DNA of 64,000 nucleotides, from NCBI GenBank assembly GCA_023249615.1, contig JAHFCG010000001.1, positions 2,257 to 66,256 of the forward strand. Direction: 5' to 3'. Positions 34,755-56,471 of the stretch are shown here, piece by piece. This DNA is from a candidate division FCPU426 bacterium. Its GTDB lineage: Bacteria > Oederibacteriota > Muellerivitia > Muellerivitales > Muellerivitaceae. A program made the translations under genes and the position numbers. Within the stretch, counting starts at the first letter, position 1, and each line of letters starts with the position of its first letter. The notes under the pieces were generated by a model. It had not been told where the DNA came from. It searched no databases and was given only the letters and a program-made list of their open reading frames with translations.

Positions 34755-35873
34755 CTACTCGGGGAGAACCGCCTTATTGGGTCCCACTTCCTGGGCCTGT
34801 TGCAAAAGTTTTTCAGCGTTTTCAAAAAGTAAAAGGTGGTTGCCCGCGTGTTTGGGATAGGTGGAGGCGCTGATATTTAAAAATACGGGCGGGCCATCCC
34901 CCATGATTTGCTTGTAAAACTTGAAAATTCTTTTTGCGATGATCCCGTAGGTCTGGTTGTCCGTATCCGGAAGGATGATGCCGTACCTGTTTTTATCCAG
35001 CCTGCAAATGATGTCAACCCGCCTCAGACTTTTATACAAGATATCCGCGACCTGGGTGGCGGTAGTGTTTTCAATCAGTTTTGCGGTCACGGGATCAATG
35101 GGTGTAACGCTTAAAAACAACAAACTGACGTGGCGGGAATAACGCTTGGCCCGTTCCACCTCGATGGCGAGGCACTCCTCGAAATAGTCCTTGTTAAATA
35201 ACCGGGTGACTTCGTCCACCAAAACCACCGGCCTTTTGTGATCATTGTCCTCTTTCTCCGGCCTGACGGTTGTGACGGGCGCGGAGACGGGTGGGTTTTC
35301 AGCTTTATTTTTGGGCCTTTCCTCAAAAGCAGGGGGAATTCCAGCCGGGATTCCTGCTTTCGGGTCCTCCACCTTCCCGGATTTTTTGATCAAATGGACC
35401 GCTTTTAATAAACTTTCCTGCCATGGTTTCCAAATATTGGTTAAATCAGTCAATAGTTCCTGTTCATAGGGACGTGAATCCTGGTGGGCGCAGCCCAGTA
35501 AAAGAAAATCCTGTTTGGGAAGATTAAAAACAAGGAAAATCCCGCTGAAGGGTTTTTGAATCCGCAGGGATCCTGACTTGTTGAAAACGGGTTTTCCGGT
35601 CATATCCAGAAAAACTTTTAACGGAAGTTTCGAAAGGGTAACCCGTTCCTCTACCCCCAACCGGTAAAAACATGTATCCATGATTTCTTCTTTACCCTCA
35701 AAGGCTAGCGGAGCGGGGGATTCTTCCGGCGTATTGGAACAGGCGATAAAAACACAATCAAATTTGAAGTTTTGAAGGATTTCCTTGCAACAAGCCGCAA
35801 GGGAGGCCTGGGTGGGGCGGCTTTGCCTGCATTGGTCGATTAATTTTTGAATGAGAAGAGTTTCGGAAATCAC
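34755..35873 (-). CDS. Sensor-domain (GAF-like) protein with a degenerate GGDEF domain, probably catalytically inactive
   Basis: The C-terminal half aligns with the GGDEF fold (DEVTRLFNKDYFEECLAIEVERAKRY...), but the signature is NRYGI instead of GG(D/E)EF. Confidence 0.6.
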   Translation of the reverse strand: MISETLLIQKLIDQCRQSRPTQASLAACCKEILQNFKFDCVFIACSNTPEESPAPLAFEGKEEIMDTCFYRLGVEERVTLSKLPLKVFLDMTGKPVFNKSGSLRIQKPFSGIFLVFNLPKQDFLLLGCAHQDSRPYEQELLTDLTNIWKPWQESLLKAVHLIKKSGKVEDPKAGIPAGIPPAFEERPKNKAENPPVSAPVTTVRPEKEDNDHKRPVVLVDEVTRLFNKDYFEECLAIEVERAKRYSRHVSLLFLSVTPIDPVTAKLIENTTATQVADILYKSLRRVDIICRLDKNRYGIILPDTDNQTYGIIAKRIFKFYKQIMGDGPPVFLNISASTYPKHAGNHLLLFENAEKLLQQAQEVGPNKAVLPE

Positions 35874-36038
35874 AAAAAACCTTTCAGGGTTTCTTTTTCA
35901 ACACGAGGCCTCGAGGGGCCCGGTTAATCTTCAACCAACAAGAATGTTCCGGCTGGGTTTAAAAAACACTTGATTACTTTTATCCCGGCTTTCCCATCGC
36001 GCCCGGGTGGTTCAAACGCGGTTTGTGGATTATATCTT

Positions 36039-36653
36039 TTACTTGACCTTTATCGCCTGAAAAATGGCCCTTAACGAAACCGCGTCCGGTACCAGCAGAA
36101 AGTAACCCCCAATAACCTCATGAGCGTCAATGAATTTGGTTTCTATGCAAATTACCTTGGTGTCGTCATCCATCCCCTGGGTTAGGGAGGTCAATAGGGC
36201 CCCCGCCATGTCAAAAACCAGGGTTGGAACTGAAATAAGAAGAAGCATTCCGAGAAATTCATTCAAGGCGCTTAAATAGGCGCCGGTCAAAATATTCCCA
36301 GCCTCTTTAATGGCCGAATGACCCATCTCGGTAAGAATCTTGCTGGTTCCGACTTCCTGTTTAAGAAGCATATCCGCCAGGTGAAGGGCCGAATCCCGGG
36401 GAAAAAGCAAAACGATTTTTCCGGTTGCGTCGCCAAGGATGGCCAAGGTCAACCCGGCTACCAACGTGTTGGGGTCGCCCACAAGACGTGGAACCTCCGA
36501 AAGGGAAAGAATATTGGCCTTGGGAACAGTAATATGGATTTTTTTTCCGAGAAGCTGGGACAAAGCCGTGGCGCCATGGCCGGCGCCGATGTTGCCCACT
36601 TCCTTCAGGGCATCCAATTGGCTGGGCGTCAACTGGTCGAGATTAAGAAGCAT
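36039..36653 (-). CDS. cheC: CheC/CheX-family CheY-P phosphatase
   Basis: LDALKEVGNIGAGHGATALSQLLGKKI... duplicated CheC repeats. Confidence 0.8.
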   Translation of the reverse strand: MLLNLDQLTPSQLDALKEVGNIGAGHGATALSQLLGKKIHITVPKANILSLSEVPRLVGDPNTLVAGLTLAILGDATGKIVLLFPRDSALHLADMLLKQEVGTSKILTEMGHSAIKEAGNILTGAYLSALNEFLGMLLLISVPTLVFDMAGALLTSLTQGMDDDTKVICIETKFIDAHEVIGGYFLLVPDAVSLRAIFQAIKVK

Positions 36654-36677
36654 TCGAAAAATCCTTTTTCCAAAATC

Positions 36678-38894
36678 CTATAAACCCTCATGGGTCCCCA
36701 GGGGTATGATCCCCTGGTGCTCTTCCTGGAAACGTCTTTCCTTTAAATCCTCAATCAAACTATTGACGTCCAGAATCAACGCTATCTTACCACTCCCAAG
36801 GATGGTTGCGCCCGAAAAACCTCGGATGCCCTTCAGAAGCCTGTCGAGGGATTTTATGGCGATTTCCTGCTGGCCGATCACTTCGTCCACCAAAATTCCA
36901 ACACGAGACTCCCCCACTTCCGCCACCAGGACCGTCTCCAAACCCGTTTCAAGGGCCGGCCCGGGGGGAATAGCCATCTCAAGAAGTTCCTGAAGATGGT
37001 AAAGCGGAATGACTTCATCCCGCAAAATAAAAGTCTCCTGTTGTTGAATAATCCTTTTCTCATCCGTGTGGATATCCACGGTTTCAATGATGTTGACCAC
37101 GGGGATAACAAAAACCTCCTCGTTACATTTGACCAGGAGTCCCTTGATGATGGCGAGGGTCAAGGGAAAACGTAAAATAAAGGTGGTTCCTAATCCCTTC
37201 CGGCTTTGAATCCGGAAAGTTCCGCCAAGCGCCTCCACCTTCGTTTTGGCGACGTCCACTCCAACCCCCCGGCCTGAAACCTCGGTCGCGTTATCAATGG
37301 TGGAAAAACCCGGCAAGGCAATCAGGCGGACGGCCTCCTCGTCGGTTAATCGTATGGCTTCCTCGCGCGTAATCAGACCTTTCATAACCGCCTTCTTTCG
37401 GACCAATTCAGGATCAACTCCCCTTCCGTTGTCGATTACCGACAGGATAACGAAATGTCTTTCCCTCTTGGCCTGAAGCCGGATGGTTCCCGCGGGGTCC
37501 TTCCCTTCCTTTTCCCGTTCCTCCGGGATTTCAATCCCGTGGTCAATCGCGTTTCGGAGCAAATGAACCAGTGGCTCACTCATTTCCTCGATAACCGTCC
37601 TGTCCAATTCCACCTCAGCCCCGTCCATTTCAAGGTCCACCTGTTTATGAAGTGATTTTGCCAGGTCCCTGACCATCCGGGGAAAACGGTCAAAAATTTG
37701 CTTAACAGGCATGAGGCGGACCTTCATGATTTCGTCCTGAAGTTCATCGGTAATGTGATGAAGTTGAAAAAGGGGATCCAACAATTCCTTTAATTCTTTC
37801 TGGTGTACCACCTGTTCAAATCGGATTTTTGAGATGACCAATTCCTGAACCAAGGCCATTAACTTGTCGAGTTTAGAAGTGTGAACACGAACCGTGGGCA
37901 GGATAAAAGTCCTTTCGTCGGACCCCGTGGTTCTGGAAACCTGGGTTGAACCCTTTGAATCCGTCGGTTCCTCGGATTCCGCGTCGGTTTCCGTTTTGCC
38001 GAAATCCGACTCACGGCGGCCGGGACTCCGTTCGGGCAATACCTTAAAAGGATTTGATTTTGGAGTTTCCGATTCCTTCTTTTTAAAAACAGCCTCATGG
38101 TCCTCGTCGGGGCTAAAGGAATCGATTTGAACTTTTTCAACCTCGCTTATCCCCGTCAAGGTCTTTTTGATTTTTTCCTCAGGACTGTCGGTAACGACGA
38201 CCAGAAAAAAGCCCCTCTCGAAATGCCCCTTTTCTATTTCCTGCGGCGCCGGGTGGCTCTTTACGATTTCGCCAAGTTCATTAATGGCTTTTAAAATCAT
38301 GAAGGAGCGGACCTCCTTAAAGGCGCAATCCCTTTCCAATTCCACCATGATTTTGAATACCGAAAAACCGTTCATACGGGCCTGGGAAATCACATCCCTT
38401 TCCTCGTCCGTAAAGGGCAGGGCCACTTCCTGAACCACCTCCACCACGGGCTCCACAGGCGAAGCCGCTCCCCGGAGGGCCTCCGAGGCCTCCTGAAGGC
38501 TGGTGAGGGTGGCTTTTAAATCATCTTCCTCCAGCGAGTCATTGGACGAAAGGATGTTGACCCACTTCTCCAGTTGGTCCAGACAAATGAAAAGAGCGTC
38601 AACCAGTTGGGGCGTCAGGGGTTTGACCCCTGAACGAATGGGTTCCAGCACCGTTTCCATTTGGTGGGTGAGCTGTGCCATGGGTTCATATCCCATGGTG
38701 GCCGACATGCCCTTGATGGTGTGCGCGGCGCGGAATATCTCGTTGATGGACTCCCCGTGTCCCGGATCTTTTTCAAGAACCACGAGGGAATTGTTGAGGT
38801 TCGCGAGGTATTCCCTCGCCTCAGTCAGGAAAATTTCCTTATAGTCACTGCTTTTCACGATGGCTCCAGGGAAAAGGGAAAATGGCAATGGCAT
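36678..38894 (-). CDS. cheA: Chemotaxis histidine kinase CheA (HPt, dimerisation, HATPase and CheW-like domains)
   Basis: HTIKGMSATMGYE HPt motif, HATPase_c G-boxes, and a C-terminal CheW-like domain. Confidence 0.9.
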   Translation of the reverse strand: MPLPFSLFPGAIVKSSDYKEIFLTEAREYLANLNNSLVVLEKDPGHGESINEIFRAAHTIKGMSATMGYEPMAQLTHQMETVLEPIRSGVKPLTPQLVDALFICLDQLEKWVNILSSNDSLEEDDLKATLTSLQEASEALRGAASPVEPVVEVVQEVALPFTDEERDVISQARMNGFSVFKIMVELERDCAFKEVRSFMILKAINELGEIVKSHPAPQEIEKGHFERGFFLVVVTDSPEEKIKKTLTGISEVEKVQIDSFSPDEDHEAVFKKKESETPKSNPFKVLPERSPGRRESDFGKTETDAESEEPTDSKGSTQVSRTTGSDERTFILPTVRVHTSKLDKLMALVQELVISKIRFEQVVHQKELKELLDPLFQLHHITDELQDEIMKVRLMPVKQIFDRFPRMVRDLAKSLHKQVDLEMDGAEVELDRTVIEEMSEPLVHLLRNAIDHGIEIPEEREKEGKDPAGTIRLQAKRERHFVILSVIDNGRGVDPELVRKKAVMKGLITREEAIRLTDEEAVRLIALPGFSTIDNATEVSGRGVGVDVAKTKVEALGGTFRIQSRKGLGTTFILRFPLTLAIIKGLLVKCNEEVFVIPVVNIIETVDIHTDEKRIIQQQETFILRDEVIPLYHLQELLEMAIPPGPALETGLETVLVAEVGESRVGILVDEVIGQQEIAIKSLDRLLKGIRGFSGATILGSGKIALILDVNSLIEDLKERRFQEEHQGIIPLGTHEGL

Positions 38895-38953
38895 TTTAAC
38901 CTAATTTGGGGAAAATTGATTTGGTTGGATGTTTAAAGCGGTGTTTGTGATTA

Positions 38954-40048
38954 CTATCGGCGGTTTAAAAGCGCGTTTATTTCCTGGGCCATTTGGGACA
39001 GGGGTACCTGCCGGTCCACCATTCCCGAATCCACCGCGGCCTTGGGCATCCCGTAAACCACGCAGCTGCCGGCGTCCTGGGCGAACGTTTTTCCCCCCAC
39101 GGCATGAATATCCTTCAAACCCGCGGTTCCGTCCCTGCCCATTCCGGTCAGGATAACTCCCATGCATTGCTTGCCCGCTGTTTTGGCTACAGAGCTCATC
39201 ATGATATCGGCGGAGGGTTTTACGCCCAGCCTTGGGGGGTGATCATTAAAACCAAACTTGTAATGCCCGGCACCTCCCTCAAGAACCAGGTGAAGGCCCG
39301 CCGGGGCGACATAAGCGTGGCCCCCCATGAGATACTCTCCATCCTCCGCCTCTGAAACCTCCAGGCGGCTGACCTCACCCAGGCGCCTGGCCAGGGCTTT
39401 CGTGAAACCCACCGAAATATGCTGAACAATCACGAAAGCGACGCTCGAACTCCGGTTTAAATTGGAAAACAATTCATTGAGCGCCCTGGGCCCTCCGGTT
39501 GAGGAGGCCACCGCCACGATAAAAGTGGCCGGTTTATCCCTTTCAACCGTTTCTGGTTCGGCAGGCTTGACATTTTTTTTTACCGTGGATTCGGCGGAGA
39601 CTCCTTCCAATTCCTTGTTTCGGCGGGGCTTGCAAAGGGAGGCCATTTTTATTTTCTCGACCAATTCTCCCTGGATTGCCTTGGCGTTTTCCAAAACGCG
39701 CCCTGCCGGTTTACCGATACAATCGATGGCTCCCAGTTCGAGGGCCCTGATGGTTGTTTCGGTTCCCTTGCCTGTATGGCTGGAGATCATGACAACGGGA
39801 GTTGGCGAATCCTTCATTATTTTTTCGAGGGCGGCCAACCCGTCCATCTTGGGCATTTCCACGTCGAGCGTGATGACGTCCGGTTTCAACTTTTTGGCTT
39901 TTTCGACCGCCTCGAGCCCGTTCTGGGCGGTGTCCAAGACGGTGATTTCCCCATTGGTGGTATTCAGGATTTCAGACAGGATTTTTCTCATGAAAAAAGA
40001 ATCGTCGACGATAAGAACACGGATGGTTTTGGATTTTTCAGCCGTCAT
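38954..40048 (-). CDS. cheB: Chemotaxis methylesterase CheB (REC + CheB_methylest)
   Basis: IRVLIVDDSFFMRK receiver followed by a methylesterase domain (GASTGG...). Confidence 0.9.
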   Translation of the reverse strand: MTAEKSKTIRVLIVDDSFFMRKILSEILNTTNGEITVLDTAQNGLEAVEKAKKLKPDVITLDVEMPKMDGLAALEKIMKDSPTPVVMISSHTGKGTETTIRALELGAIDCIGKPAGRVLENAKAIQGELVEKIKMASLCKPRRNKELEGVSAESTVKKNVKPAEPETVERDKPATFIVAVASSTGGPRALNELFSNLNRSSSVAFVIVQHISVGFTKALARRLGEVSRLEVSEAEDGEYLMGGHAYVAPAGLHLVLEGGAGHYKFGFNDHPPRLGVKPSADIMMSSVAKTAGKQCMGVILTGMGRDGTAGLKDIHAVGGKTFAQDAGSCVVYGMPKAAVDSGMVDRQVPLSQMAQEINALLNRR

Positions 40049-40104
40049 GGAGGTTCCCGGTCAAATTACGGTTTGTCTTAAAAAGCTCAAAACGACTTTT
40101 GCCG

Positions 40105-40184
40105 CCGATCAAATCCGATACACGCCGATAAATCAAAATTATTTTTTACAGTTTGTAGTAATCGGCGTCCATCGGAAGTTATCG
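40105..40184. repeat. Palindromic element made of three 10-bp-phased CCGAT units, an AT-rich spacer, and three 10-bp-phased ATCGG units
   Basis: gCCGCCGATcaaaTCCGATacacGCCGATaaatc...gtaATCGGcgtccATCGGaagttATCGGCGGttg. Confidence 0.6.
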
Positions 40185-40207
40185 GCGGTTGCTTTTTTTC
40201 TTAACTT

Positions 40208-40618
40208 TCAAGCCCCGACGACCCGCTTCAAGGCTTCCTGGACGCGGGGCGGCTGGAAAGGTTTGATGATAAAGTCCCGAGCACCGGCCTGAATGGAATC
40301 AATAACCATGCTTTGCTGGCCCATGGCGCTTACCATGACGATTTTAGCCTCCGGGTCAAAGGCCCTGATTTCCCTAACGGCTTCAATGCCGTCCAATTCC
40401 GGCATGACAATATCCATGGTGACCAAATCAGGTTTTAATTTTTTATATAATTCCACGGCTTCCCGACCATTGGAAGCTTCCCCTGCCAATTCATAGGGTT
40501 CCCTTAAAATAATCCCCTTTAAGATGGTCCTCATGAAGGAGGAGTCGTCGCAAAATAAAACTTTGATGGCCAAGGCTTTTTCCTTATTTGGGGATTGCGG
40601 CTTCCGAATCCACGACAA
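40208..40618 (-). CDS. cheY: CheY-like single-domain response regulator
   Basis: VLFCDDSSFMR...DLVTMDIVMPELDGIEA. Confidence 0.85.
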   Translation of the reverse strand: MSWIRKPQSPNKEKALAIKVLFCDDSSFMRTILKGIILREPYELAGEASNGREAVELYKKLKPDLVTMDIVMPELDGIEAVREIRAFDPEAKIVMVSAMGQQSMVIDSIQAGARDFIIKPFQPPRVQEALKRVVGA

Positions 40619-41105
40619 CCCTTAGTCCCTCAAGATTAAAGGTCTTTTCCATGTTAAACAAAATAATTAACCGGTCCCGTACCGTCAATAACCCCTTCAC
40701 GAAATCAAGGGTGATATTCAGGACGGGCTGGGTGGCCTTCTCGATCGCGGTGGGGGAAACCCGTAAAACCTCCACCACCTTGTCCACGAGGAGCCCAAGC
40801 ATTTGGTCCTTGGTTTCCACGACCAGGATCCGGGTTTCCGGGGTCCTTTCCACCAAAGGCATTTCAAACCGTTTTTTAAGGTCCAAAACCGGAAAAATGC
40901 GGCCCCGGAGGTTGATTATCCCCTCCAGGTATTTTGGCGCCTTCGGCATGAGCGTAATTTCTGAAACCCGGATAATTTCCCGCACTTCCTGGATTTCCAG
41001 GGCAAGTTCACAACCCGAAAGGGTAAAAACCACAAGTTGAATCTCGGCCTTGTCCTTTGCCTGGGAGTTAAAAATTTCGGCAGTCGAAACGCTCATTCCA
41101 TTCAC
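40584..41105 (-). CDS. cheW: CheW coupling protein
   Basis: VVFTLSGCELALEIQEVREI... CheW fold, ~170 aa. Confidence 0.85.
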   Translation of the reverse strand: MNGMSVSTAEIFNSQAKDKAEIQLVVFTLSGCELALEIQEVREIIRVSEITLMPKAPKYLEGIINLRGRIFPVLDLKKRFEMPLVERTPETRILVVETKDQMLGLLVDKVVEVLRVSPTAIEKATQPVLNITLDFVKGLLTVRDRLIILFNMEKTFNLEGLRVVVDSEAAIPK

Positions 41106-41117
41106 CTCTTGGGTCGC

Positions 41118-41603
41118 TTAAATCACCAGATTGGGTTGATTCAATTTTCTTATTTCCACCTTTCCATCCGAAAGGGAGAAAAACATCGTCCTGCCCTGGG
41201 ACCCGCCAACCTCTTCACCTTTTATCCGAATCCCCTTTTCCCGCAGTATTTCCCGAATGGCCGAGGCATTCCTCATACCGATCGGAACAGCCTGCTGGGC
41301 GATGGAAACAAACATATTGGCCCCGCCGACCAATTTGGCCTCCACGGAGGTAAAATCGGCCCCTTCTTTCTTCATCCCGGCAAAAAGCGCGATCATGGCG
41401 GTGTCAGCGTACTTTCCAGGCACTGAAACCTGGGAATGCATTCGGCTGGAAGGTAGCATGATATGGGCAAGCCCGCCGATTTTTTTTACCCGGTCATAGA
41501 GGGTCACCGCTACGCAGGAACCAAGTCCGTAAGCCGCCAATCTTCCAGGATCCGTCGCCGTTTTGATTTCCGCGATTCCCACCACAAAATCATTTTCAGC
41601 CAT
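41118..41603 (-). CDS. cheD: Chemoreceptor glutamine deamidase CheD
   Basis: AYGLGSCVAVTLYDRVKKIGGLAHIMLP... conserved CheD catalytic region. Confidence 0.85.
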   Translation of the reverse strand: MAENDFVVGIAEIKTATDPGRLAAYGLGSCVAVTLYDRVKKIGGLAHIMLPSSRMHSQVSVPGKYADTAMIALFAGMKKEGADFTSVEAKLVGGANMFVSIAQQAVPIGMRNASAIREILREKGIRIKGEEVGGSQGRTMFFSLSDGKVEIRKLNQPNLVI

Positions 41604-42234
41604 CGCTGGGAAGTCCCAGTGATTTTGAGAATGCCGCGAAAAACTTTTTCAGGGAATCCGCCTCCGGCAAAAGGAAAAAACTGCCGGTCAATTGCTTGTC
41701 ATCCTCCAAAAACTGGGTTTCGATCACGATGGCCACTTCCTCCCGTTGCTCGAGTTCCACCAGGACTGTATCCAAAATCGCCTGGGCCATGTCAATCGCA
41801 AGGCTCGGAACCCCGTGAATGAGCTGAAGGTTGATAAAACGGAAGAGGGCGCTCAAGTAAGAGCCGGTCAGAATGCTTCCCAACTCCTTGATGGCTGATT
41901 GGCCCAGCTCGGAAAGGTTATTGGGATCTTCTTCCTTCCTGCCGATCAGCATCGCGGAAAGCTCCGGCAGTCGTTCCAGGGGAAAAAAAATGAGGGCAAT
42001 GCCGAGCATCTCCCCATAAACCGGCATATGAACCGCGGCGACATTTTTCTCAATTCCACCCAAGAAACCGGCGATGGCGTCAGCGGGAAGGACAAGCACC
42101 TTCGTGACCGACATATCAACTCTTTTGCCCACCATTTGGGATAGGGCGGTCGCGGCGTTTCCGGCCCCGATATTTCCGATTTCCCTCAGGGCGTCCAGCT
42201 GAAATTCGGTAAAGGGTTTTGAATCATTGGCCAT
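41596..42234 (-). CDS. cheC: Second CheC-family phosphatase
   Basis: LDALREIGNIGAGNAATALSQMVGKRV... Confidence 0.8.
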   Translation of the reverse strand: MANDSKPFTEFQLDALREIGNIGAGNAATALSQMVGKRVDMSVTKVLVLPADAIAGFLGGIEKNVAAVHMPVYGEMLGIALIFFPLERLPELSAMLIGRKEEDPNNLSELGQSAIKELGSILTGSYLSALFRFINLQLIHGVPSLAIDMAQAILDTVLVELEQREEVAIVIETQFLEDDKQLTGSFFLLPEADSLKKFFAAFSKSLGLPSDG

Positions 42235-42301: not shown

Positions 42302-42664
42302 TCAGCCCAGAACTTTTTTAACGGCCTCAAGAACATTGGAGGGTTGAAAGGGTTTTACGATGAAATCTTTCGCTCCCGCCTGGATGGCTTCAACCACCAG
42401 GGATTGCTGGCCCATGGAACTGCACATCAAAATTTTGGCGGCAGGATTCCCCTTCACAATTTCACGGACGGCGTCAATACCGCCCATTTCAGGCATGATA
42501 ATGTCCATGATCACGAGGTCGGGCTTCAGGGTTTTATACTGCTCAACGGCTTTGGCCCCGTTTTCGGCCTCCCCGATCACCTCATAACCCGAACCCACCA
42601 GAATGTTTTTCAACATCATCCGCATGAATGAAGCGTCATCCACCAGCATTACGCGATGAGCCAC
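42302..42664 (-). CDS. cheY: CheY-like response regulator
   Basis: VMLVDDASFMR...DLVIMDIIMPEMGGIDA. Confidence 0.85.
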   Translation of the reverse strand: MAHRVMLVDDASFMRMMLKNILVGSGYEVIGEAENGAKAVEQYKTLKPDLVIMDIIMPEMGGIDAVREIVKGNPAAKILMCSSMGQQSLVVEAIQAGAKDFIVKPFQPSNVLEAVKKVLG

Positions 42665-43097: not shown

Positions 43098-43104
43098 GGA
43101 ATTC

Positions 43105-45940: not shown

Positions 45941-47121
45941 ACGACGGTGCTCCCCTTCATGATTTTAAGGTTGTTTTTCAAAATTTCATTGGTCGGGTCC
46001 AAGGCCAGGGACTTTTCCCAATGGTCAAGGGCCATTTGTTTTTCACCCTTTTTCATATATATATTTCCCAATTTTGAATGGGCGTCCGCGTGGGTCGGAT
46101 TAAGGCTTAACAGTTTTTCATATTCCACGATCGCCTCATCAAAGTGGCCCAATTTGTAGTTCAGGTTTCCCAAATTATCCAGGATCAGGACATCGTTTGG
46201 GTTGATTAATTTCGCTGCCTTATATTCCTCCAGGGCCTTTTGAATGTCCCCTTGTTTATCATAAATATAACCCAAAACGTTGTGAACGCTGGCGTCATTT
46301 GGGTTAATTTCCATCACTTTTCGGTACATCTTGATCGCGTCCTCATGAAGTCCGCGGCCCGCGTAAATCATCCCCAGCTTGAGATAAACCTCGGCGTTGT
46401 TGGGATTTTTTTCGCGGGCCTGCTTTAAAACCTCGATCGCCTTGTCATATTGCCCCAGTGACATAAAGGCGTGTCCCATTTTCAAATGGGCTTCCGGTTC
46501 ATGGGGGTTGAGTTTCAGCGCCTGCTGGTATTGAACCAGGGCTTCCGGGTACATCCCGCGTTTGGAATAGGCGTTCCCCAGAATGGCGTAAACGGCCGCA
46601 TGCCTCGGGTTGGCGATTAGGGCCTTTTCGTAGGCTGAGATGGCCTCGTCCAAATGACCGGATTGTTCGCAGGCATATCCCATCTTGAAATAGATTTCCG
46701 CGTTGCTCGGATTTATGGCGGTGTAATTCTTGTATTGTTCAACGGCCTCCTGGTAGGCCCCCATTTTCGCGTAAACATTCCCCAGGTTGTTAAAGAGGCC
46801 GGCGTCGCCCGGATTAAGTTCGATTGATTTTTTGAATTCCAAAACAGCATCGGGGTATTTCCCCTGAATCTCCAAAAGGAGCCCCAATTTACAATGCGCG
46901 TTAAGGTTCATGGGGTTTATTTCGAGGGACTTCCGGTAATAGGATTCCGCTTCGGGATAATTTCCCATATTGGTGCAAAGGGCTCCCAAATGAAACAATA
47001 TTTCTCCGTCATTGGGGGTTAATTCGAGGGCTTTTTTAAACTCAACCAGCGCGTCCTCATACCGCTTGGAAAGCGTAAAAGCCGTCCCGAGATTGATATG
47101 ATCCTGCGCCTTATCCATCAC
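45937..47121 (-). CDS. TPR-repeat protein (~394 aa)
   Basis: About 11 TPR units. Confidence 0.8.
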   Translation of the reverse strand: MMDKAQDHINLGTAFTLSKRYEDALVEFKKALELTPNDGEILFHLGALCTNMGNYPEAESYYRKSLEINPMNLNAHCKLGLLLEIQGKYPDAVLEFKKSIELNPGDAGLFNNLGNVYAKMGAYQEAVEQYKNYTAINPSNAEIYFKMGYACEQSGHLDEAISAYEKALIANPRHAAVYAILGNAYSKRGMYPEALVQYQQALKLNPHEPEAHLKMGHAFMSLGQYDKAIEVLKQAREKNPNNAEVYLKLGMIYAGRGLHEDAIKMYRKVMEINPNDASVHNVLGYIYDKQGDIQKALEEYKAAKLINPNDVLILDNLGNLNYKLGHFDEAIVEYEKLLSLNPTHADAHSKLGNIYMKKGEKQMALDHWEKSLALDPTNEILKNNLKIMKGSTVV

Positions 47122-47980
47122 TCACCTTTTCCTCTTTGTTTGTTTCCCAAAAATTTTCGGTTTTTTCCAAAAGTCTGTAAATTCTGTTCCGAACATCAAC
47201 ACATTCATAAAATTTTCTGGAAGGTCCCAATAATGTTTCCGTCAAACCCAAAATCAAAAACCCTCCCGCGGCCAAGGCGCCGGCGAAATTTTTATAGATT
47301 TTTTGCTGCAGGGGCGCCGTCAGATAGATCAAAAGGTTCCGGCAAAAAATCAACTGAAACCCGGACAACTCATCCACCCATTCCGACAACAAATCGTGGG
47401 CCCTGAAATGAACATGCTTTTTAAGATCCGCGACAACCCTGGCTCTGGAACCCTCCACGTAAAACCAGCGGGTGACCTGAGCCTTGGAAAGCTTTTTGAG
47501 CGCCTCGACCGGATATTCACCTTTTTCAGCCGTTCGAATGCTGGCCATGTCAATATCCGTGGCGAAAATCTCAAAATCAAATCCAGGCTGGGAAAAGGAG
47601 CACTCCTTCAAAATCATGGCTACGGAATAGGGTTCCTCCCCCGTACTGCACCCCGCGCACCAAATTTTCAGTTTAATCCCGGGATTCACGGGAAAACCCG
47701 GTAAAATATTTTGCTTAATCGCCTGGTAAACATTTGGGTCACGAAAAAATTCTGTGACGTGGATGGTCAGCCGATCCAATAGAAGCGCGGGTTCCTGCCT
47801 GTTATTTTGCAAAACCCGAAGATAATCAAGGTAAGTTTTTGTTTCCATGGCCCGCATCCGGACAGCGACACGGCGTTTGATGTAATTTGGCTTATACTGA
47901 TGGCCGTCAAAACCCTTTGTCTTCAAAAGAAGGGCCAGGATTTTTTGAAAATTCGGATCCTCTTCTTTCCCAGCGTTCAT
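47111..47980 (-). CDS. cheR: Chemotaxis methyltransferase CheR
   Basis: ...FFRDPNVYQ...IWCAGCSTGEEPYSVAMIL... SAM-binding core. Confidence 0.85.
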   Translation of the reverse strand: MNAGKEEDPNFQKILALLLKTKGFDGHQYKPNYIKRRVAVRMRAMETKTYLDYLRVLQNNRQEPALLLDRLTIHVTEFFRDPNVYQAIKQNILPGFPVNPGIKLKIWCAGCSTGEEPYSVAMILKECSFSQPGFDFEIFATDIDMASIRTAEKGEYPVEALKKLSKAQVTRWFYVEGSRARVVADLKKHVHFRAHDLLSEWVDELSGFQLIFCRNLLIYLTAPLQQKIYKNFAGALAAGGFLILGLTETLLGPSRKFYECVDVRNRIYRLLEKTENFWETNKEEKVSDG

Positions 47981-49413: not shown

Positions 49414-51717
49414 TTAACTTATCTTTGAAAATATCCCCGTGAGGGTGTTCTTTTTAATTTTGGCTTCCTCTATTTTCTTTTGCGCGCGTTCATTCGCCGG
49501 ATCGATTTCCAGAATTTTGCTCCAGAGCCTGATGGCCTGGTCCATGTCATTTTGATCAAAGAATGTTTTTCCCTCGGCGTAATACTTTTCGGATTCCTGT
49601 TGAATGACAGCCTTCAGGGCCCCCAGTTGGCGGACGACTTCAGGATGCCCCGGTGAAAGCCGCAGCACCTTCGTGTATTCCTTTTGGGCGGTCGAGAGAT
49701 CGCCGGACTGGTGGGCGTTCCAACCCTCCTGAAAAATTTCATTAATCTGAAGTTCGTGCATTTGTGTTGTTTTCTGAAGATAGGCGTTCAGGTAGGCATT
49801 GCCATCCGCCTTCGATATGGCCTTTTTAAAAAACTCCATCGCGGTTTGAAAATCGCTTCGGACATAACTCCGGACCCCTTGTTCAAAAAGATTTAAAATG
49901 GGTTCCTTTTCCGGATTGGCTTCCAAACCCTCGACCCCGAAGGAAAGTAGCTTGGCGATGCCCTGTTGCAGGTAACGGGAAACATCCTCCAAGTCGGAAT
50001 TTAAATCATAAGCCTTGTTCCAGGCCACGAGGGCCCCCAATAAATCCCCAGCCTTGTACAACTCGATGGCGGACTGGTTCAAGGAATCGGCCCTGACTTT
50101 TGCCTGTTCTTTTTGGATCGCGGTTTTAAGATCCCTCTGTAAAACCCGGGCCTGTTCGTTTTGGGGATCAAGGGTAAGGGCCTGGTTGACCTGCGCGAGG
50201 GCGTTGGCAAGGTCCGACTGCTGCTGATAGGTTACGGCGTTTTGATAAAACTCCCGGGCCTTGGTCCGGTTATCCAGTTCTTCCTGAATCGCCTTGATGT
50301 AGGCTTTCGCCTGTTTGTTCTCGGGATCCGTTTCCAGTGTTTTTTGGAACTCTAGAATCGCGGCCTGGTGTTTTCCTTCCCGATACATTTGAAGGGCGGT
50401 TTTAATACCCGAGGAGGCATCCTTCTTCTTTTCCGTTTTATCGTCCATTTCCCGCAACCGGGCCATGAGGGTGTTAGCCTCTTTGTGATCCGGGATTTCC
50501 TGCAATACCCGTTTCAATTCACCCCGCGCGTCATCGAAGCGGTTTTTCGCGTAATATTCCTGCGCGCGTTTCATCCACCCCGAGACCCGGTCTTTTTGTT
50601 GCGCGTTTTCCATTTGGGAAATGAGGGATTGCGCCGAGGCCCGGGAGGTGGAAATTCCCTTGAGGCCAAGGTCAATTTCACTTGGCGAAGTCGCTTGTTC
50701 CATGGCGCTTTCCTTCGTGATAAAACCGCCCCGAACCAGTTGAATAAGGGATTGGTCGAAGGTTTGCATCCCGTATTGGCTTTGTCCTTCAGCGATAAAC
50801 CCCCGAATATGGCTAATTTTTCCCTCGGCGATAAGCGATTTGATGGTGGGGGTCGCGATCATGATTTCCGCCGCCGGAACCACCCCGACACCGTCAGCCT
50901 TGCTGACAAGGCGTTGGGAAATGACCGCCCGGATGGTGTTGGACAACTGGATCCGGATCTGGTTTTGTTGGGCCGGGGGGAAAAAATCAAGAATACGCTC
51001 CATGGTTTGAACGGTATCCATCGTATGGAGGGTTGATAAAACCAGATGCCCTGTTTCGGCCGCGGAGATGGCCGCGGAAACCGTTTCGACATCCCGCATT
51101 TCACCAATAAGAATAATGTCAGGATCCTGGCGAAGAACGTATTTAAGGGCGGACCTGAAACTTTCAGTATCAAGCCCCACCTCCCGCTGGGTAACACTGG
51201 ATTTTTTATCCTTGTGCACAAACTCAATGGGATCTTCAACGGTAACAATGTGAGCCGCCCGGTTGAGATTCATTTCATTGATCAGGGCGGCCAGGGTGGT
51301 GGATTTACCGGAGCCGGTGATTCCCGTGACCAGGATCAGACCCCGCTGTTCCATCGCGATTTGTTTCAAAACCGCGGTGGGCATGTTGATGTCCTCAATC
51401 CGGGGAATGTTTTGGGGAATCTGCCTCATGATGATTTCCGGCAATCCCCTTTGCCACATGGCGTTGGTCCGGAACCGGGCCAAACCCTCAACGGCGTAGG
51501 CCAGGTCAACCTCGCGGTGTTCCTCAAAAAAAATTCTTTGTTGTTTTTCGTCCATCAGGTAGGAAGCCACTTCGGCCAATTCCTGGGGAGAAAGGGGGGT
51601 TTCGCCTTGCGGGGTCAAATCACCGTCAATTCGAAACAGGGGGGGAGCGCCGGCCTTCATATGAACGTCGGAGGCCTTTTTTTCAACCATGGAACTGAGA
51701 ATTTGTTGAAGGTCCAT
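49414..51717 (-). CDS. pilT: PilT-family type IV pilus retraction-type ATPase fused to a ~420 aa C-terminal TPR region
   Basis: N-terminal MDLQQILSSMVEKKASDVHMKAGAPPLFRIDGDL (PilT N-terminus), Walker A LILVTGITGSGKSTTLAALI, followed by TPR repeats to the C-terminus. Confidence 0.75.
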   Translation of the reverse strand: MDLQQILSSMVEKKASDVHMKAGAPPLFRIDGDLTPQGETPLSPQELAEVASYLMDEKQQRIFFEEHREVDLAYAVEGLARFRTNAMWQRGLPEIIMRQIPQNIPRIEDINMPTAVLKQIAMEQRGLILVTGITGSGKSTTLAALINEMNLNRAAHIVTVEDPIEFVHKDKKSSVTQREVGLDTESFRSALKYVLRQDPDIILIGEMRDVETVSAAISAAETGHLVLSTLHTMDTVQTMERILDFFPPAQQNQIRIQLSNTIRAVISQRLVSKADGVGVVPAAEIMIATPTIKSLIAEGKISHIRGFIAEGQSQYGMQTFDQSLIQLVRGGFITKESAMEQATSPSEIDLGLKGISTSRASAQSLISQMENAQQKDRVSGWMKRAQEYYAKNRFDDARGELKRVLQEIPDHKEANTLMARLREMDDKTEKKKDASSGIKTALQMYREGKHQAAILEFQKTLETDPENKQAKAYIKAIQEELDNRTKAREFYQNAVTYQQQSDLANALAQVNQALTLDPQNEQARVLQRDLKTAIQKEQAKVRADSLNQSAIELYKAGDLLGALVAWNKAYDLNSDLEDVSRYLQQGIAKLLSFGVEGLEANPEKEPILNLFEQGVRSYVRSDFQTAMEFFKKAISKADGNAYLNAYLQKTTQMHELQINEIFQEGWNAHQSGDLSTAQKEYTKVLRLSPGHPEVVRQLGALKAVIQQESEKYYAEGKTFFDQNDMDQAIRLWSKILEIDPANERAQKKIEEAKIKKNTLTGIFSKIS

Positions 51718-53993: not shown

Positions 53994-54023
53994 ATAAACC
54001 CACCCTTCACGCTTCGCTTCCCT

Positions 54024-56471
54024 TTATTTGTTCAGGAGCTTCCATAATTCAACCTGGGCTTCCTTGTTTTCGGGGTTAATTCCAAGTACCGCCCGATAGG
54101 CTTCCTCGGCCTTGATCCGGCTCCCCATCCGCGCCATCAAACGTCCCATGGTCAACTGGGCCTCAATCTGTTTCGGATTTAACCGGACGGAGGATTCAAG
54201 AAGCGCTTTTGCTTCCTGGGCCCGTCCCTCGCGGTTGAAAATGATGGAAAGCTGGTATTGGGCATCGGCTAATTCCGTGTTCAGGCGGATCATTTCATCA
54301 AGCAATGTTACGCTTTTGACCTCGTTTTTTTCTTTTTGCGCTTCCTCAAGTTCCCCGATCAACTGGTTCAAACGGGCGGGTTTTGTTCTTATCGTTTTTT
54401 CAAACTCAAGCTGGGCCGCCTCTAGGATATTCTGTTGTGAATACATTTTCGAAAGAAGCGCTTGGGGTTCGGTGTAACCAGGATCTAGCTTTAAGGCCCG
54501 ATCCAGGGCGTGAATGGATGCAAGATAAAGACCCTTCTCCATGAGATTCTTTCCCAGTTCATTAAAACCGGAAATATAACGGTAAAAATATTCCTTTGTC
54601 GGGCCATTCGTTTTCTCTTCCGGCCTTGGAAGCGCCGATAAATCCAGTCGGTATTGGATGTTTTCCAACGAGGCCCCCGTTGGCCCGCTCCCGCCGAATA
54701 CCCTCGTCAAAACCGCGGGATAACCGGAATCCTCCTTCCATTCGGGGAGGGGGGTTGAAAGGGACCGGTGTATTTCCCAATAATTCCTGTTATTCAAAAG
54801 TAAATTTTTGAACAAATCCTCCTCGGACCCCAGAAGGGAGGAAAACAACAACTCCGGCTCCCTTTGAATCAACTGGTTGAGGTACCACCTTTGGGCCAGG
54901 TATCTTTTTTCAAGAATGACCGCCGAAAGGGAAACCGGCTCAATCAGGCGGGCCTCCCGGCAGGCGTACGCCTCAAATTCATCATCACAAACCAAAACTT
55001 TTTTTGGATTCGGTGTTTCAGCGGGGAATCCCGGGGTCGCGGGGGACGGTTCATCCGTATTGACCTTGTTGGAGCTTGAAAGTATTTGAAGGAGGTTCAG
55101 GGCGTGTTGTTGGGGGAAAAATATTCCGCTTCGATAAAAATGCTGGCCCGGCAGCAGCGACAGCCACGAACCGACGAAAAGAAATAATCCCGCGGTGATC
55201 AAAAGCCGGGAACCGGAAAAATAACCCGTTTGCCTTCTTTCCATGCCCTTTTCGAGAAGTTTAAGGAACATTTCCCCCAGCCCCAGCGGGATCAAAAGAG
55301 CCGTCGTTCCCAGGGCTTCGGAGGAAAAAGAAAAAAACAAAATCCCACCCATGAAAGCGAGAACCCATAACCAAAGGTCCAGGGTTGGATAAAGGGATTT
55401 GTTGCCGGTTTTCCACTTGAAAAAATAAAGGCTTGCAAGCAAAAAAACAACGCCGAAGAGAAAAACCGTCCCCCAACCCCAGGCCTCCAGGGCCGACAGC
55501 AGGGACCATTTCCGGTCGGAATAAAACAAAAACAGGGATTTCCAGTTGATAACCATCTCCCAAAAAGGCCGAGGCCCTCCCCAGGAGGGAAAACTTTTTT
55601 CAGTCCTGAAAATAACCCAGGCAAAGGGAGTCAGACCCAAAAAAAAAGGAAATAAATAATCCCTCCAGCTCCATCTCCTGAAATCAAGTGAACCTAAAAG
55701 TTTGATGGAGCCCAAAAAACCCCAAAGGGGGTGGATGGCCCAAAGAAGGCCCAGGTTCAATCCGAGGGCCCTGCCCGGTTTTTCCTCAAGATCCAGTAAA
55801 TATTTCTGGAAAAGAAAAAGAAGGAGGCCGAGGGATCCGATTAAACCCATCGCGGTTGTGGCTGTGTTCCAAAAAGGGAGGGTTAGCGCCGAAAACCAGG
55901 AAACCGCCGGCACCAGGAACAAATTGGAAAGGGTTTTGTTTTTTATGCCGTGGGTGAAACCCATTACGAAAAAAAACAGGGCAAGGGCCAAAACGAAACC
56001 GGAAAGTTCCGGTAGAAGTGTAAATTGTCTTTGGGGAAGCAGAAAACAGGCGGCCTGGGCCAAAAGGTAGCTCAACGGCGACCAGGGGGGCTCCGCCACG
56101 GCACCCGCGTGGATGGAAAGCCAGAAGGCGGGATCTTTGCCCCAAAAAAAACCGGGCAGCCGGTTTGCTTCAAAAAGGATCCACGGAACTCCGGCCCCGG
56201 CCAGACCCAAAAAAAAGGCTAAAAATGAGAATTGAAAAAAACGGAACAAATCCCAGCAAAAACCGAAAATCAAAAGCGATGTGATTACCATCAGGGATCC
56301 CTTTCCCATTTGTCCCTGGTAAAACAAAAACCATCCCCATGGCAATAATCCCGACGCGGTCGTCAACAGGAATTTTTGAAGTCTGGACCTTACAACGTCC
56401 CGGATTCTCGCGTTTTCCTCAGCGGCGATTTCCTCGATATTACGCACGGTTTTTTTCCCGAAGGATGGCAA
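54024..56471 (-). CDS. Second DUF2723-like polytopic membrane protein with C-terminal TPR (paralog)
   Basis: Same architecture, with ...EANRLPGFFWGKDP...AEPPWSPL at the equivalent position, and C-terminal TPR. Confidence 0.5.
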   Translation of the reverse strand: MPSFGKKTVRNIEEIAAEENARIRDVVRSRLQKFLLTTASGLLPWGWFLFYQGQMGKGSLMVITSLLIFGFCWDLFRFFQFSFLAFFLGLAGAGVPWILFEANRLPGFFWGKDPAFWLSIHAGAVAEPPWSPLSYLLAQAACFLLPQRQFTLLPELSGFVLALALFFFVMGFTHGIKNKTLSNLFLVPAVSWFSALTLPFWNTATTAMGLIGSLGLLLFLFQKYLLDLEEKPGRALGLNLGLLWAIHPLWGFLGSIKLLGSLDFRRWSWRDYLFPFFLGLTPFAWVIFRTEKSFPSWGGPRPFWEMVINWKSLFLFYSDRKWSLLSALEAWGWGTVFLFGVVFLLASLYFFKWKTGNKSLYPTLDLWLWVLAFMGGILFFSFSSEALGTTALLIPLGLGEMFLKLLEKGMERRQTGYFSGSRLLITAGLFLFVGSWLSLLPGQHFYRSGIFFPQQHALNLLQILSSSNKVNTDEPSPATPGFPAETPNPKKVLVCDDEFEAYACREARLIEPVSLSAVILEKRYLAQRWYLNQLIQREPELLFSSLLGSEEDLFKNLLLNNRNYWEIHRSLSTPLPEWKEDSGYPAVLTRVFGGSGPTGASLENIQYRLDLSALPRPEEKTNGPTKEYFYRYISGFNELGKNLMEKGLYLASIHALDRALKLDPGYTEPQALLSKMYSQQNILEAAQLEFEKTIRTKPARLNQLIGELEEAQKEKNEVKSVTLLDEMIRLNTELADAQYQLSIIFNREGRAQEAKALLESSVRLNPKQIEAQLTMGRLMARMGSRIKAEEAYRAVLGINPENKEAQVELWKLLNK

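Follow-up and report, generated by a model that had tools for sequence, protein, structure and literature searches.

A chemosensory gene cassette with an F1-like core at a type IV pilus locus of candidate division FCPU426

Chemosensory pathways that control type IV pili are known from only a few classes with distinct architectures, namely Pil-Chp, the cyanobacterial type IV pilus (Tfp) systems and Frz. The CheA kinases of the Tfp class typically contain several Hpt domains and a C-terminal receiver domain and lack a P2 domain, and kinases that combine several Hpt domains with a receiver are frequent in the alternative cellular function (ACF) class as well (PMC10782961). Tetratricopeptide repeat (TPR) proteins of Myxococcus connect receptors to motility machines other than flagella, and fusions of CheR to TPR domains are a mark of pathways that are not flagellar (PMC3447774). 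Here, we describe a 19-gene cluster that occupies positions 34755-56471 of a 64,000-nucleotide stretch of DNA (contig JAHFCG010000001.1, positions 2,257 to 66,256; hereafter, the window) from a bacterium of candidate division FCPU426, for which no description of motility or signaling was found in the literature searched. The cluster combines chemosensory (che) genes with genes for TPR proteins, a PII-family protein and a PilT-type ATPase. Based on gene context, we propose with moderate confidence that it encodes an F1-derived chemosensory pathway that is gated by cyclic di-GMP (c-di-GMP) and PII and acts on type IV pili.

Gene order and conservation of the che cassette

Domains were assigned with Pfam and NCBIfam, and the relatives of the cluster were analyzed as 66 related loci mapped by tblastn and gene tables (L numbers below). 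The TPR part of the PilT-TPR fusion, used as a query against one genome per species, identified 23 loci, and a metagenome scan contributed 31 more. Gene content, domain identities, conservation and the presence or absence of the cassette were observed directly in this material. Every large open reading frame (ORF) of the cluster lies on the minus strand (Table 1). The che cassette proper extends from cheR to a gene for a degenerate GGDEF protein (34755-47980) and is flanked on one side by a type IV pilus block (PilT-TPR, a small periplasmic TPR protein and a TsaP-like protein) and on the other side by dprA-topA. Eight ORF junctions overlap, including the coaX/GT-C junction, whose overlap depends on the longest-ORF start (GT-C, glycosyltransferase C-type); the cheR stop and the start of the gene for TPR394 overlap by 11 nt, and the largest gaps measure 159 and 165 nt. 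The gene content that had been predicted from the letters of the sequence was thus borne out, with refinements, by Pfam and NCBIfam searches of the proteins, and so were the common orientation and the tight or overlapping spacing of the genes. The GC content is even along the window.

The gene order is kept in at least 14 GTDB species representatives and in further metagenome contigs of the window's order. It reads valS-nadC-birA-coaX-GT-C-GT-C-PilT-TPR-135 aa-TsaP-like-CheR-TPR394-MshEN-CheW-TPR750-PII-CheY-CheC-CheD-CheW-CheY-CheB and continues with CheA-CheC/X-degenerate GGDEF-dprA-topA-argB-nrdR. Within the window's clade, PilT-TPR, TPR750, TPR394, PII and the two CheYs are more conserved than the housekeeping neighbors (Table 1). 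PilT-TPR is located directly upstream of the che genes wherever the available stretch reaches it, that is, in the window's order and in the L004/L062 clade; the L064/L065 and L066 stretches begin downstream of PilT-TPR.

Are the TPR, PII, PilT-TPR and GT-C genes simply unrelated neighbors that came to lie among che genes without forming a composite module? Genomes of this kind encode many TPR proteins, the GT-C genes behave as independent neighbors, and promoter and terminator scans are uninformative because their counts stay at the level of shuffled controls; for the same reason, little weight is given to the lack of a terminator-like site in any intergenic gap. However, TPR394, MshEN-CheW and PII are interleaved with che genes in the same order at every che-bearing locus, across deep clades that are ~42% (PilT-TPR) or ~40% (CheA) identical. 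The accessory ORFs also overlap che ORFs and are among the most conserved of the region, and the MshEN-CheW fusion physically couples an accessory input to a core che domain. Given that the interleaved TPR and PII genes are under stronger constraint than housekeeping genes, chance adjacency is ruled out for them, in agreement with the original prediction, which had called for this neighborhood check. As a general explanation, unrelated adjacency is exceedingly improbable: it is largely refuted for TPR394, MshEN-CheW, TPR750 and PII and is likely to be true for the GT-C genes.

The relatives provide a series of natural variants. In a che-less subclade of the window's order (nine contigs), whose PilT-TPR is 73-75% identical to that of the window, the order is GT-C-GT-C-PilT-TPR-135 aa-TsaP-like-dprA-topA, and all genes from cheR to the GGDEF gene, including PII, are gone. 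Junctions of che-less relatives at which dprA comes directly after the TsaP-like gene were seen in L003, L021, L039-L045 and L047. More distant loci (L004 and L062; PilT-TPR 42% identical) contain prfA-prmC-PilT-TPR-160 aa-~400 aa-CheR-TPR~400-MshEN-CheW-PII-CheY-CheC-CheD-MCP-CheW-CheY-CheB-CheA (MCP, methyl-accepting chemotaxis protein), with neither GT-C genes nor TPR750. A member of the same deep clade, L063, is che-less and reads PilT-TPR-160 aa-256 aa-PII-dprA-topA. In L064 and L065, the order is YfiO-like-~395 aa-HD-GYP-CheR-TPR392-MshEN-CheW-TPR~730-PII-CheY-CheC-CheD-MCP-CheW-CheY-CheB-CheA and continues with CheC/X-FtsA/PilM-like (~705 aa)-small ORF-dprA, with topA next in L064. As an outgroup within the window's order (CheA 53% identical), L066 encodes a TPR769 and no MCP and ends in CheC/X-691-aa membrane protein-FtsA/PilM-like-degenerate GGDEF-dprA, and L029 and L030 contain CheA-CheC/X-FtsA/PilM-like-(GGDEF)-dprA. 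This distribution indicates that the cassette from cheR to the GGDEF gene is ancestral to the sampled phylum, was inherited vertically between the tsaP-like gene and dprA and was lost as a unit at least twice; the FtsA/PilM-like gene appears to have been lost in the window's own clade. The existence of che-less variants, of MCP-bearing and MCP-less variants and of a che-less variant that keeps PII makes several predictions testable by comparative genomics alone.

The type IV pilus block and the chemosensory core

PilT-TPR is a PilT-family protein with a C-terminal extension. It passes the TIGR01420 model (pilT_fam) with 463.5 bits against a cut-off of 319.1, and its invariant columns include GSGKST, DPD..L.GEMRD and TGH.V.STLHT, so that the Walker A and B, Asp and His boxes are intact. 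An AlphaFold2 model built with 34 homologues (mean predicted local distance difference test score 83.7) consists of a PilT domain (residues 1-352), a disordered linker (residues 356-370) and a regular helical repeat domain of ~400 aa that extends to the C-terminus. The modeled ATPase superposes on Thermus thermophilus PilT2, Geobacter PilT4 and Pseudomonas aeruginosa PilT/PilU with 42-51% sequence identity and TM scores of 0.85-0.91 (target-normalized; Foldseek). The databases contain an identical copy of PilT-TPR, full-length family members that share 66-89% identity with it and another tier at ~42% identity; a third-tier protein from another lineage (40% identity, L056) has no che neighbors.

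The gene between the 135-aa protein and cheR had been described as encoding an unknown secreted protein. Its product carries a signal peptide, and it need not be called unknown. The 324-aa protein alone has no Pfam match, but the profile of its family (20 orthologues), when compared with PDB sequences, matches Myxococcus xanthus TsaP (3jc8_Ta, E 7.1e-20) and the P. aeruginosa PilQ-associated LysM protein (6ve2_O, E 2.1e-10). The protein is composed of a signal peptide, a Pro/Ser/Thr/Glu-rich linker and FlgT-like domains with weak FlgT_C matches. LysM is missing, given that the LysM segment of 3jc8 aligns to a gap and that no Pfam LysM match was obtained, and the protein is therefore named TsaP-like. 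In four species of Proteobacteria, namely P. aeruginosa, V. cholerae, Acinetobacter baylyi and Acinetobacter baumannii, the locus tags of tsaP and dprA directly follow one another (PMC8811193 Table 1), and the che-less arrangement of FCPU426 thus matches an old synteny. The 135-aa protein, which always follows PilT-TPR, had been predicted to be a small TPR lipoprotein. It has a hydrophobic N-terminal segment and no Cys and is thus not demonstrably a lipoprotein; instead, it is a small TPR protein of the CpoB/YbgF/YfiO type, as its profile weakly matches CpoB/YbgF (E 7e-4) and its L064 orthologue matches Pfam YfiO, whereas the protein alone has no Pfam match at lenient thresholds.

An additional candidate for a pilus-related gene is found in the cassettes of relatives and is absent from the window. 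It encodes an actin-fold, FtsA/PilM-like protein of ~705 aa, whose C-terminal region consists of repeated short segments with a weak TGS-like match, and it lies between cheC/X and dprA in four other lineages (Table 1). Moreover, pilN, pilO and a secretin gene are found a few kb upstream in L029, within 10 kb of cheA. The TsaP-like gene and the FtsA/PilM-like gene inside the cassettes strengthen the link to type IV pili that had been predicted from the PilT gene.

Table 1. Coordinates of the cluster genes in the window and of the FtsA/PilM-like gene in related loci, with mean amino acid identity to the window over 12 loci
Feature	Coordinates	Strand	Assignment and remarks	Mean identity (%)
valS				69.4
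nadC				68.1
birA				59.2
coaX				58.4
GT-C-like membrane protein with C-terminal TPR tail, 815 aa	54024..56471	-	neighbor of the module, probably outside the che core	45.4
TMEM260-like/DUF2723 GT-C-type membrane protein, 729 aa	51804..53993	-	PF11028, E 2.7e-19	41.6
PilT-TPR, PilT-family retraction-type ATPase with helical TPR-like domain	49414..51717	-	T2SSE + TPR; TIGR01420	81.8
Small exported or membrane-anchored TPR-like protein, 135 aa	48975..49382	-	CpoB/YbgF/YfiO-like	
TsaP-like type IV pilus secretin-associated protein, 324 aa	48011..48985	-	profile match to TsaP	41.5
CheR methyltransferase	47111..47980	-	CheR_N + CheR; first gene of the che cassette	59.2
TPR394, cytoplasmic all-TPR protein, 394 aa	45937..47121	-	11 TPR repeats	74.8
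MshEN-CheW, 212 aa	45302..45940	-	PF01584 at residues 62-196; NF053729 at residues 9-57	70.2
TPR750, cytoplasmic all-TPR protein, 750 aa	43105..45357	-	TPR families; 737 aa from second ATG	81.0
PII-family protein, 112 aa	42759..43097	-	PF00543, 83.8 bits against a cut-off of 25	79.3
CheY2, single receiver domain	42302..42664	-	Response_reg; best NCBIfam model CheY_Halo	90.6
CheC-type phosphatase of phosphorylated CheY	41596..42234	-	PF04509; best NCBIfam model CheC_Thermotogales	72.1
CheD receptor deamidase	41118..41603	-	PF03975; cheW starts 12 nt further on	57.7
CheW, canonical, single-domain	40584..41105	-	PF01584, E 8e-35	52.3
CheY1, second CheY	40208..40618	-	Response_reg; best model CheY_Halo	80.1
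CheB methylesterase with receiver domain	38954..40048	-	Response_reg + CheB_methylest	60.3
CheA kinase, domains P1-P5	36678..38894	-	Hpt, P2 (PF07194), H-kinase_dim, HATPase_c, CheW	
CheC/CheX-type phosphatase	36039..36653	-	PF04509 + PF13690; after cheA in all clades	
Degenerate GGDEF protein	34755..35873	-	PF00990 at residues 218-366, after a 215-aa N-terminal domain; last gene of the cassette	
dprA	33535..34737	-	DNA_processg_A + DprA_WH; downstream boundary	
FtsA/PilM-like gene, L029	12713-14845			
FtsA/PilM-like gene, L030	13053-15182			
FtsA/PilM-like gene, L064	15910-18021			
FtsA/PilM-like gene, L065	16226-18349			
FtsA/PilM-like gene, L066	14942-17071			

The chemosensory core itself is familiar. 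CheA contains one Hpt domain, P2 and P3-P4-P5 and lacks a receiver domain; its probable true start lies 12 codons downstream, which yields 726 aa, and an identical 726-aa protein exists (P0121). Outside the phylum, the closest CheAs belong to Negativicutes and Omnitrophota (42-43% identity). The CheA_Halo model of NCBIfam scores 505 bits compared to 362 bits for the E. coli type, both under the equivalog cut-offs, and the best-scoring NCBIfam models are haloarchaeal for CheA and CheY and Thermotogales for CheC. CheC, CheD and CheC/CheX are all encoded in the cluster (PF04509 twice, PF13690 and PF03975). By its CheA architecture, auxiliary proteins, best models and nearest relatives, the core looks F1-like, of the Bacillus/Thermotoga/archaeal type, and the original prediction that the composition resembles neither a flagellar che operon nor the described Wsp, Frz and Chp pathways fails for this standard set. 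The enzymes of the core retain their catalytic motifs, which are invariant in CheR (W.AGCS.G.E.YS and CRN..IY; 23 orthologues), CheD (GSC and AH.MLP; 21 orthologues) and CheB (STGGP, QH and TGMG.DG), as is the context of the phospho-histidine in CheA (both in 21-23 orthologues, with the window's clade included). Conservation differs among the che genes: CheY2 is the most conserved gene of the cluster and keeps 62-77% identity in distant clades, CheC/X is 56-90% identical across clades, and the canonical CheW is the least conserved che gene in the window's clade (mean 52%).

Given such a core, the cassette could be an ordinary flagellar F1 chemotaxis operon with lineage-specific accessories, in which the target of phosphorylated CheY (CheY-P) is a flagellar switch with genes at another site and the adjacency to pilus genes is historical. 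Many flagellar che operons, such as the fla/che operon of B. subtilis, contain no MCP genes, and the Negativicutes, to which some of the nearest named CheAs belong, are flagellated. The Hpt-P2-P3-P4-P5 layout of CheA with a P2 of the Thermotoga/Bacillus type (PMC10782961), the Omnitrophota CheAs among the nearest named ones, the presence of CheC, CheD and CheX, the haloarchaeal and Thermotogales models and the behavior of the cassette as a separable unit all fit this explanation. However, inspection of the window and of the tblastn maps and gene tables for the 66 loci, for which no flagellar gene-model screen was made, revealed no flagellar gene. The cassette also stays with the tsaP-like gene and dprA over phylum-deep divergence, and with PilT-TPR where the stretch reaches it, and in four lineages an FtsA/PilM-like gene lies within it. 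Unlike in known flagellar F1 operons, TPR394, MshEN-CheW, TPR750 and PII are encoded between cheR and cheY by overlapping ORFs, and these accessory genes are more conserved than the adaptation enzymes. We thus regard a flagellar function as rather unlikely.

The proposed pilus-directed pathway has to accommodate several observations that weigh against it. CheA is of a standard flagellar (F1-like) type, with its nearest named relatives in Negativicutes and Omnitrophota, and lacks both the multiple Hpt domains and the C-terminal receiver that characterize the CheAs known to control pili (PMC10782961). The cassette can be separated from the pilus genes: at least two losses of it left PilT-TPR and the TsaP-like gene in place, and the TPR domain of PilT-TPR therefore has a role that does not depend on che genes. 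The whole arrangement could stem from one ancient insertion at tsaP-dprA followed by inheritance, without functional coupling. In addition, the FtsA/PilM-like protein can be assigned to PilM only marginally, as it scores 26.5 bits with PilM_2 (cut-off 27) and 33.7 bits with FtsA (cut-off 31.8). Finally, a 16S-based study ties the FCPU426 cluster to Goldbacteria, in which flagellar genes were reported (PMC7031533); this may or may not extend to the window's lineage.

Receptor, accessory inputs and neighboring genes

Which receptor does the kinase serve? Consistent with the original prediction, no MCP was detected in the 64-kb window by tblastn with a same-phylum MCP (E<=10) or by Pfam scans of the other main ORFs. 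In L004, L062, L064 and L065, which represent two deep sister clades, an MCP gene is found exactly between cheD and cheW and encodes a protein of ~430 aa with two N-terminal hydrophobic segments. A search for an MCP of the window's clade with the sister-clade MCP as the query yielded no match besides in-cluster MCPs from other clades and MCPs without an attributable lineage. The position of the MCP gene in the sister clades marks the lack of an MCP as a derived state that reflects a secondary loss in the window's order, and its interpretation as a design feature of the module is not upheld. Given that the catalytic motifs of CheR, CheB and CheD are invariant, a methyl-accepting receptor is expected to be encoded elsewhere in the genome. 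A role of TPR750 as a stand-in for the lost MCP was considered and rejected, because an MCP is encoded in L064 and L065 alongside an orthologue of TPR750 (40-41% identity, 96-98% coverage).

In the window's order, the parts that contact the receptor evolve fastest (CheW 52%, CheD 58%, CheR 59% and CheB 60% identity) compared to the slow TPR750 (81%), PII (79%), PilT-TPR (82%) and CheY2 (91%); altogether, the CheYs, TPR750, PII and PilT-TPR range from 79 to 91%. In the MCP-bearing pair L064 and L065, the rates are flat at 57-66% (CheW 66%, TPR729 66%, MCP 64%). This contrast between fast receptor-contacting and slow scaffold or output parts hints at a receptor-independent variant, which we consider highly doubtful. 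According to this variant, the kinase complex of the window's order may no longer need a classical transmembrane MCP, and the PilT-TPR retraction motor would be set by intracellular signals. CheA may be scaffolded by MshEN-CheW and the two highly conserved cytoplasmic TPR proteins, the driving signals may be c-di-GMP (through the MshEN motif and the RxxD site of the GGDEF protein) and the energy and 2-oxoglutarate status (through the PII paralogue), and CheR, CheB and CheD might act on a non-canonical substrate or a remote receptor.

c-di-GMP is a candidate input of the pathway through two proteins of the cassette. The N-terminal motif of MshEN-CheW scores 55.5 bits with NF053729, an MshE-related c-di-GMP-binding motif model with a cut-off of 38, and the motif residues are kept in 24 MshEN-CheW orthologues. 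The leading basic residue is shifted, as K-S-L-G occurs instead of what we take to be the usual R-L-G. The full-length architecture is rare: only ~10 of 1.84 billion 50%-identity cluster representatives possess it, all of which resemble FCPU426 proteins, and no description of such a fusion was found in the literature searched. MshEN-CheW is thus best described as a putative c-di-GMP-binding CheW. The second protein, the product of the last cassette gene, lacks a receiver domain and carries a degenerate GGDEF motif (DKNRY), with the RxxD site kept as RRVD five residues upstream; L028, L030 and L066 encode proteins of the same kind, resulting in four orthologues with the window included. The degenerate motif predicts that the protein cannot be a cyclase. 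Its 215-aa N-terminal domain has no Pfam match even at lenient thresholds. The c-di-GMP components noticed in the window recur among the relatives in the form of the MshEN motif, of the degenerate GGDEF protein with RxxD and of an HD-GYP gene inside the L064/L065 cassette.

Further c-di-GMP-related genes were observed at a distance from the cassettes. Four such genes (HDOD, GAF-HD-GYP and two GAF-GGDEF) lie 4-9 kb upstream of PilT-TPR in L004 (1367-6275), L062 (1349-6343) and L063 (290-5039), with rho, rpmE, prfA and prmC between this set and PilT-TPR. In the window, a stand-alone PilZ-domain protein is encoded at 17933-18322 (-), beside OmpH and lpx genes and ~17 kb from the cluster.

The PII-family protein is conserved in all clades and aligns end to end with PII proteins of solved structure (E 1e-32). 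Compared with 2eg1, it keeps Tyr51, RTGRVGDGKFF and R.RTGERG and differs in the T-loop (R38Y and G41V) and just past the loop (K58R). It scores below the NCBIfam equivalog cut-offs of GlnB and GlnK (99.8 bits against 181 and 93.9 against 202). The che-less locus L063 keeps PII alone (12383-12715) between the TsaP-like/256-aa gene and dprA. The distribution suggests that PII works with the PilT-TPR block instead of, or besides, the Che proteins, but the signal is mixed because the genes lost in the che-less subclade of the window's order include PII. No link of PII to PilT or to Che proteins was found described in the literature searched.

TPR394 and TPR750 contain no hydrophobic segment. TPR394 is present in every che-bearing relative, with 69-83% identity within the clade and 28-39% identity in distant clades. 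TPR750, which is 77-90% identical within the clade and 66% identical in L066, occurs in three of the four clades and is absent in L004 and L062.

From gene context, we infer every protein-protein step, the ligand binding and the pilus output of the following scheme. Receptors would control CheA together with CheW and MshEN-CheW; in the window's order, their genes would lie elsewhere, and the sister clades carry a receptor gene between cheD and cheW. CheA would phosphorylate CheY1, CheY2 and CheB; CheC and CheC/X would reset CheY-P, and CheR, CheB and CheD would adapt the receptor. Binding of c-di-GMP to the MshEN motif and to the RxxD site of the degenerate GGDEF protein may tune the coupling, and the PII paralogue may feed in the ATP/ADP/2-oxoglutarate status. 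CheY-P is proposed to act on the type IV pilus motor and to alter retraction and, as a consequence, surface motility or attachment, most likely by a route that uses TPR394, TPR750 and/or the TPR domain of PilT-TPR as docking surfaces. The pilus motor is assigned as the output because PilT-TPR and the TsaP-like gene lie upstream, the FtsA/PilM-like gene is found in the cassettes of relatives and pilN, pilO and the secretin gene pilQ are near in L029.

The two membrane proteins encoded upstream of PilT-TPR had been predicted to be DUF2723/GT-C-like with TPR tails. The 815-aa protein contains ~7 hydrophobic segments and TPR matches at residues 636-806; a gene caller starts its gene on the identical contig 54 codons later (761 aa). 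Its residues 1-616 have no Pfam match, lenient thresholds included, and BLASTP detects no significant similarity to the 729-aa protein, but an hhalign comparison of the two orthologue sets yields a probability of 98.2% (E 3.9e-14, 558 columns). Both proteins thus appear to be TMEM260/DUF2723-like, the 729-aa protein by PF11028 and the 815-aa protein solely through hhalign, and this part of the prediction stands; for the 729-aa protein, the TPR tail gives only a weak signal. The GT-C genes adjoin the cluster only in the window's order, are absent upstream of PilT-TPR in L004, L062 and L063 and are kept in nine che-less contigs of the window's order. They are also poorly conserved, with the 729-aa orthologues being 36-47% identical. 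Because they are confined to one order and kept in che-less contigs, the GT-C genes are probably outside the signaling pathway, and their membership in the che module was rejected as unlikely. A 691-aa protein with ~8 hydrophobic segments is encoded between cheC/X and the FtsA/PilM-like gene in L066 (12800-14875). Its identification as another GT-C is unsupported, given an hhalign probability below 3% and no Pfam match.

These neighbors bear on an alternative output, in which the cassette serves an ACF-type function and controls a c-di-GMP-dependent surface process (exopolysaccharide, biofilm or envelope glycosylation via GT-C) rather than motility. The degenerate GGDEF protein with its RxxD site conserved at the cassette end, the HD-GYP gene in the L064/L065 cassette, the MshEN motif on the second CheW and the GT-C genes upstream in the window's order are compatible with such an output, and ACF-type clusters typically include TPR partners of CheR (PMC3447774). 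However, the cassette encodes no multidomain receiver-output regulator, the hallmark of the ACF class (PMC3447774), as both CheYs are single-domain proteins, and CheA shows neither the receiver domain nor the multiple Hpt domains that are frequent among ACF and Tfp kinases (PMC10782961). A receiver is also missing from the GGDEF protein, which is predicted to be unable to make c-di-GMP. Glycosylation as an output of the che genes, as originally suggested, has little support, since the GT-C genes persist without che genes and are missing beside the cluster in L004, L062 and L063. A surface output of this kind is therefore quite improbable.

Outside the cluster, the other main ORFs of the window encode, according to Pfam, housekeeping proteins, lipopolysaccharide (LPS) genes, a LytTR two-component pair and the PilZ protein, and none contains MCPsignal. 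The two-component pair consists of a LytTR-type response regulator and a His_kinase/HATPase sensor (8144-10236, -). An LpxC-FabZ fusion with LpxC and FabA-like domains (14382-15716, -) belongs to an lpxD-lpxC/fabZ-lpxA-lpxI block by lptF/lptG; the lpx block and lptF/lptG indicate that the organism has an outer membrane. A 1998-aa ORF (1883-7879, -) amid housekeeping and LPS genes matches no Pfam family at E<=0.001, and a small PD-(D/E)XK nuclease-family protein (PDDEXK_3; 61711-62082, -) is encoded between valS and a Germane-domain/amidase pair. A complete tmRNA gene (20141-20483, -; RF00023, 173 bits) is the sole Rfam match in the window, and no riboswitch was detected there with Rfam.

Comparison with known systems

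Compared with described systems, the core of the cassette is familiar, and its accessory inputs and genomic placement appear to be new. The PII-family protein resembles GlnB and GlnK in its length of 112 aa, its full-length match, its ATP/ADP-binding motifs and Tyr51, but it differs in its divergent T-loop, K58R, its sub-cut-off scores and its location in a che/pilus cluster instead of beside amtB, glnA or nif genes. Likewise, the 24-residue tandem motif of MshEN-CheW resembles the MshEN of MshE/PilB-type proteins and exceeds the NF053729 cut-off, but it is fused to CheW and not to a secretion or pilus ATPase. The TsaP-like protein shares the FlgT-like part and the signal peptide with TsaP (3jc8 and 6ve2), and its gene is directly upstream of dprA in the che-less relatives; in contrast to TsaP, it lacks LysM, and 13 kb of che genes split its gene from dprA in che-bearing genomes.

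The Frz system of M. xanthus and CheR-TPR fusions such as FrzF and WspC tie a TPR module to the methyltransferase step, as does the overlap between cheR and the TPR394 gene, and TPR proteins in non-flagellar motility complexes contact the receptor (PMC3447774). However, TPR394 is a separate 11-repeat protein, whereas FrzF and WspC contain a short fused domain of ~2 repeats (PMC3447774), and the cassette has neither a CheA-CheY fusion nor a multidomain response regulator. In contrast to Wsp-like ACF systems, no receiver-output fusion is present, with single-domain CheYs and a receiver-free GGDEF protein. In placement, the cassette resembles Pil-Chp of P. aeruginosa and the cyanobacterial Tfp systems, which control twitching: a che cluster adjoins type IV pilus genes and encodes two CheY-like regulators of a single domain each, through which the extension and retraction ATPases could be addressed. 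Nevertheless, Pil-Chp is not known to contain CheC or CheD, and the MCP of Pil-Chp, PilJ, sits in its cluster. The CheA described here, with one Hpt, P2 and no receiver, also differs from the Tfp CheA, which has multiple Hpt domains, a C-terminal receiver and no P2 (PMC10782961).

The core of the cassette resembles the F1 class, which includes B. subtilis, T. maritima and haloarchaea (classification of Wuichet and Zhulin, per PMC10782961). Both have a five-domain CheA with one Hpt and a Thermotoga/Bacillus-type P2, and both combine CheW, CheY, CheB and CheR with CheC, CheD and a CheC/CheX phosphatase. The cassette of FCPU426 departs from this class in that MshEN-CheW, the PII paralogue and two large cytoplasmic TPR proteins are encoded inside the operon, the genes lie in a PilT/TsaP/dprA neighborhood and not at a flagellar or archaellar locus, and no in-cluster MCP is present in the window's order. 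Three of its candidate inputs were not found described for chemosensory arrays in the literature searched: a putative c-di-GMP-binding CheW, an operon-embedded PII and cytoplasmic TPR scaffolds, the latter being more conserved than the core enzymes. The archaeal F1 class controls a type-IV-pilus-like machine, the archaellum. If the proposed pilus-directed pathway is true, it would represent an independent solution in which an uncultured soil and peat phylum re-used the flagellar-type F1 kit at a pilus locus, in parallel to the archaeal re-use of the same kit for the archaellum.

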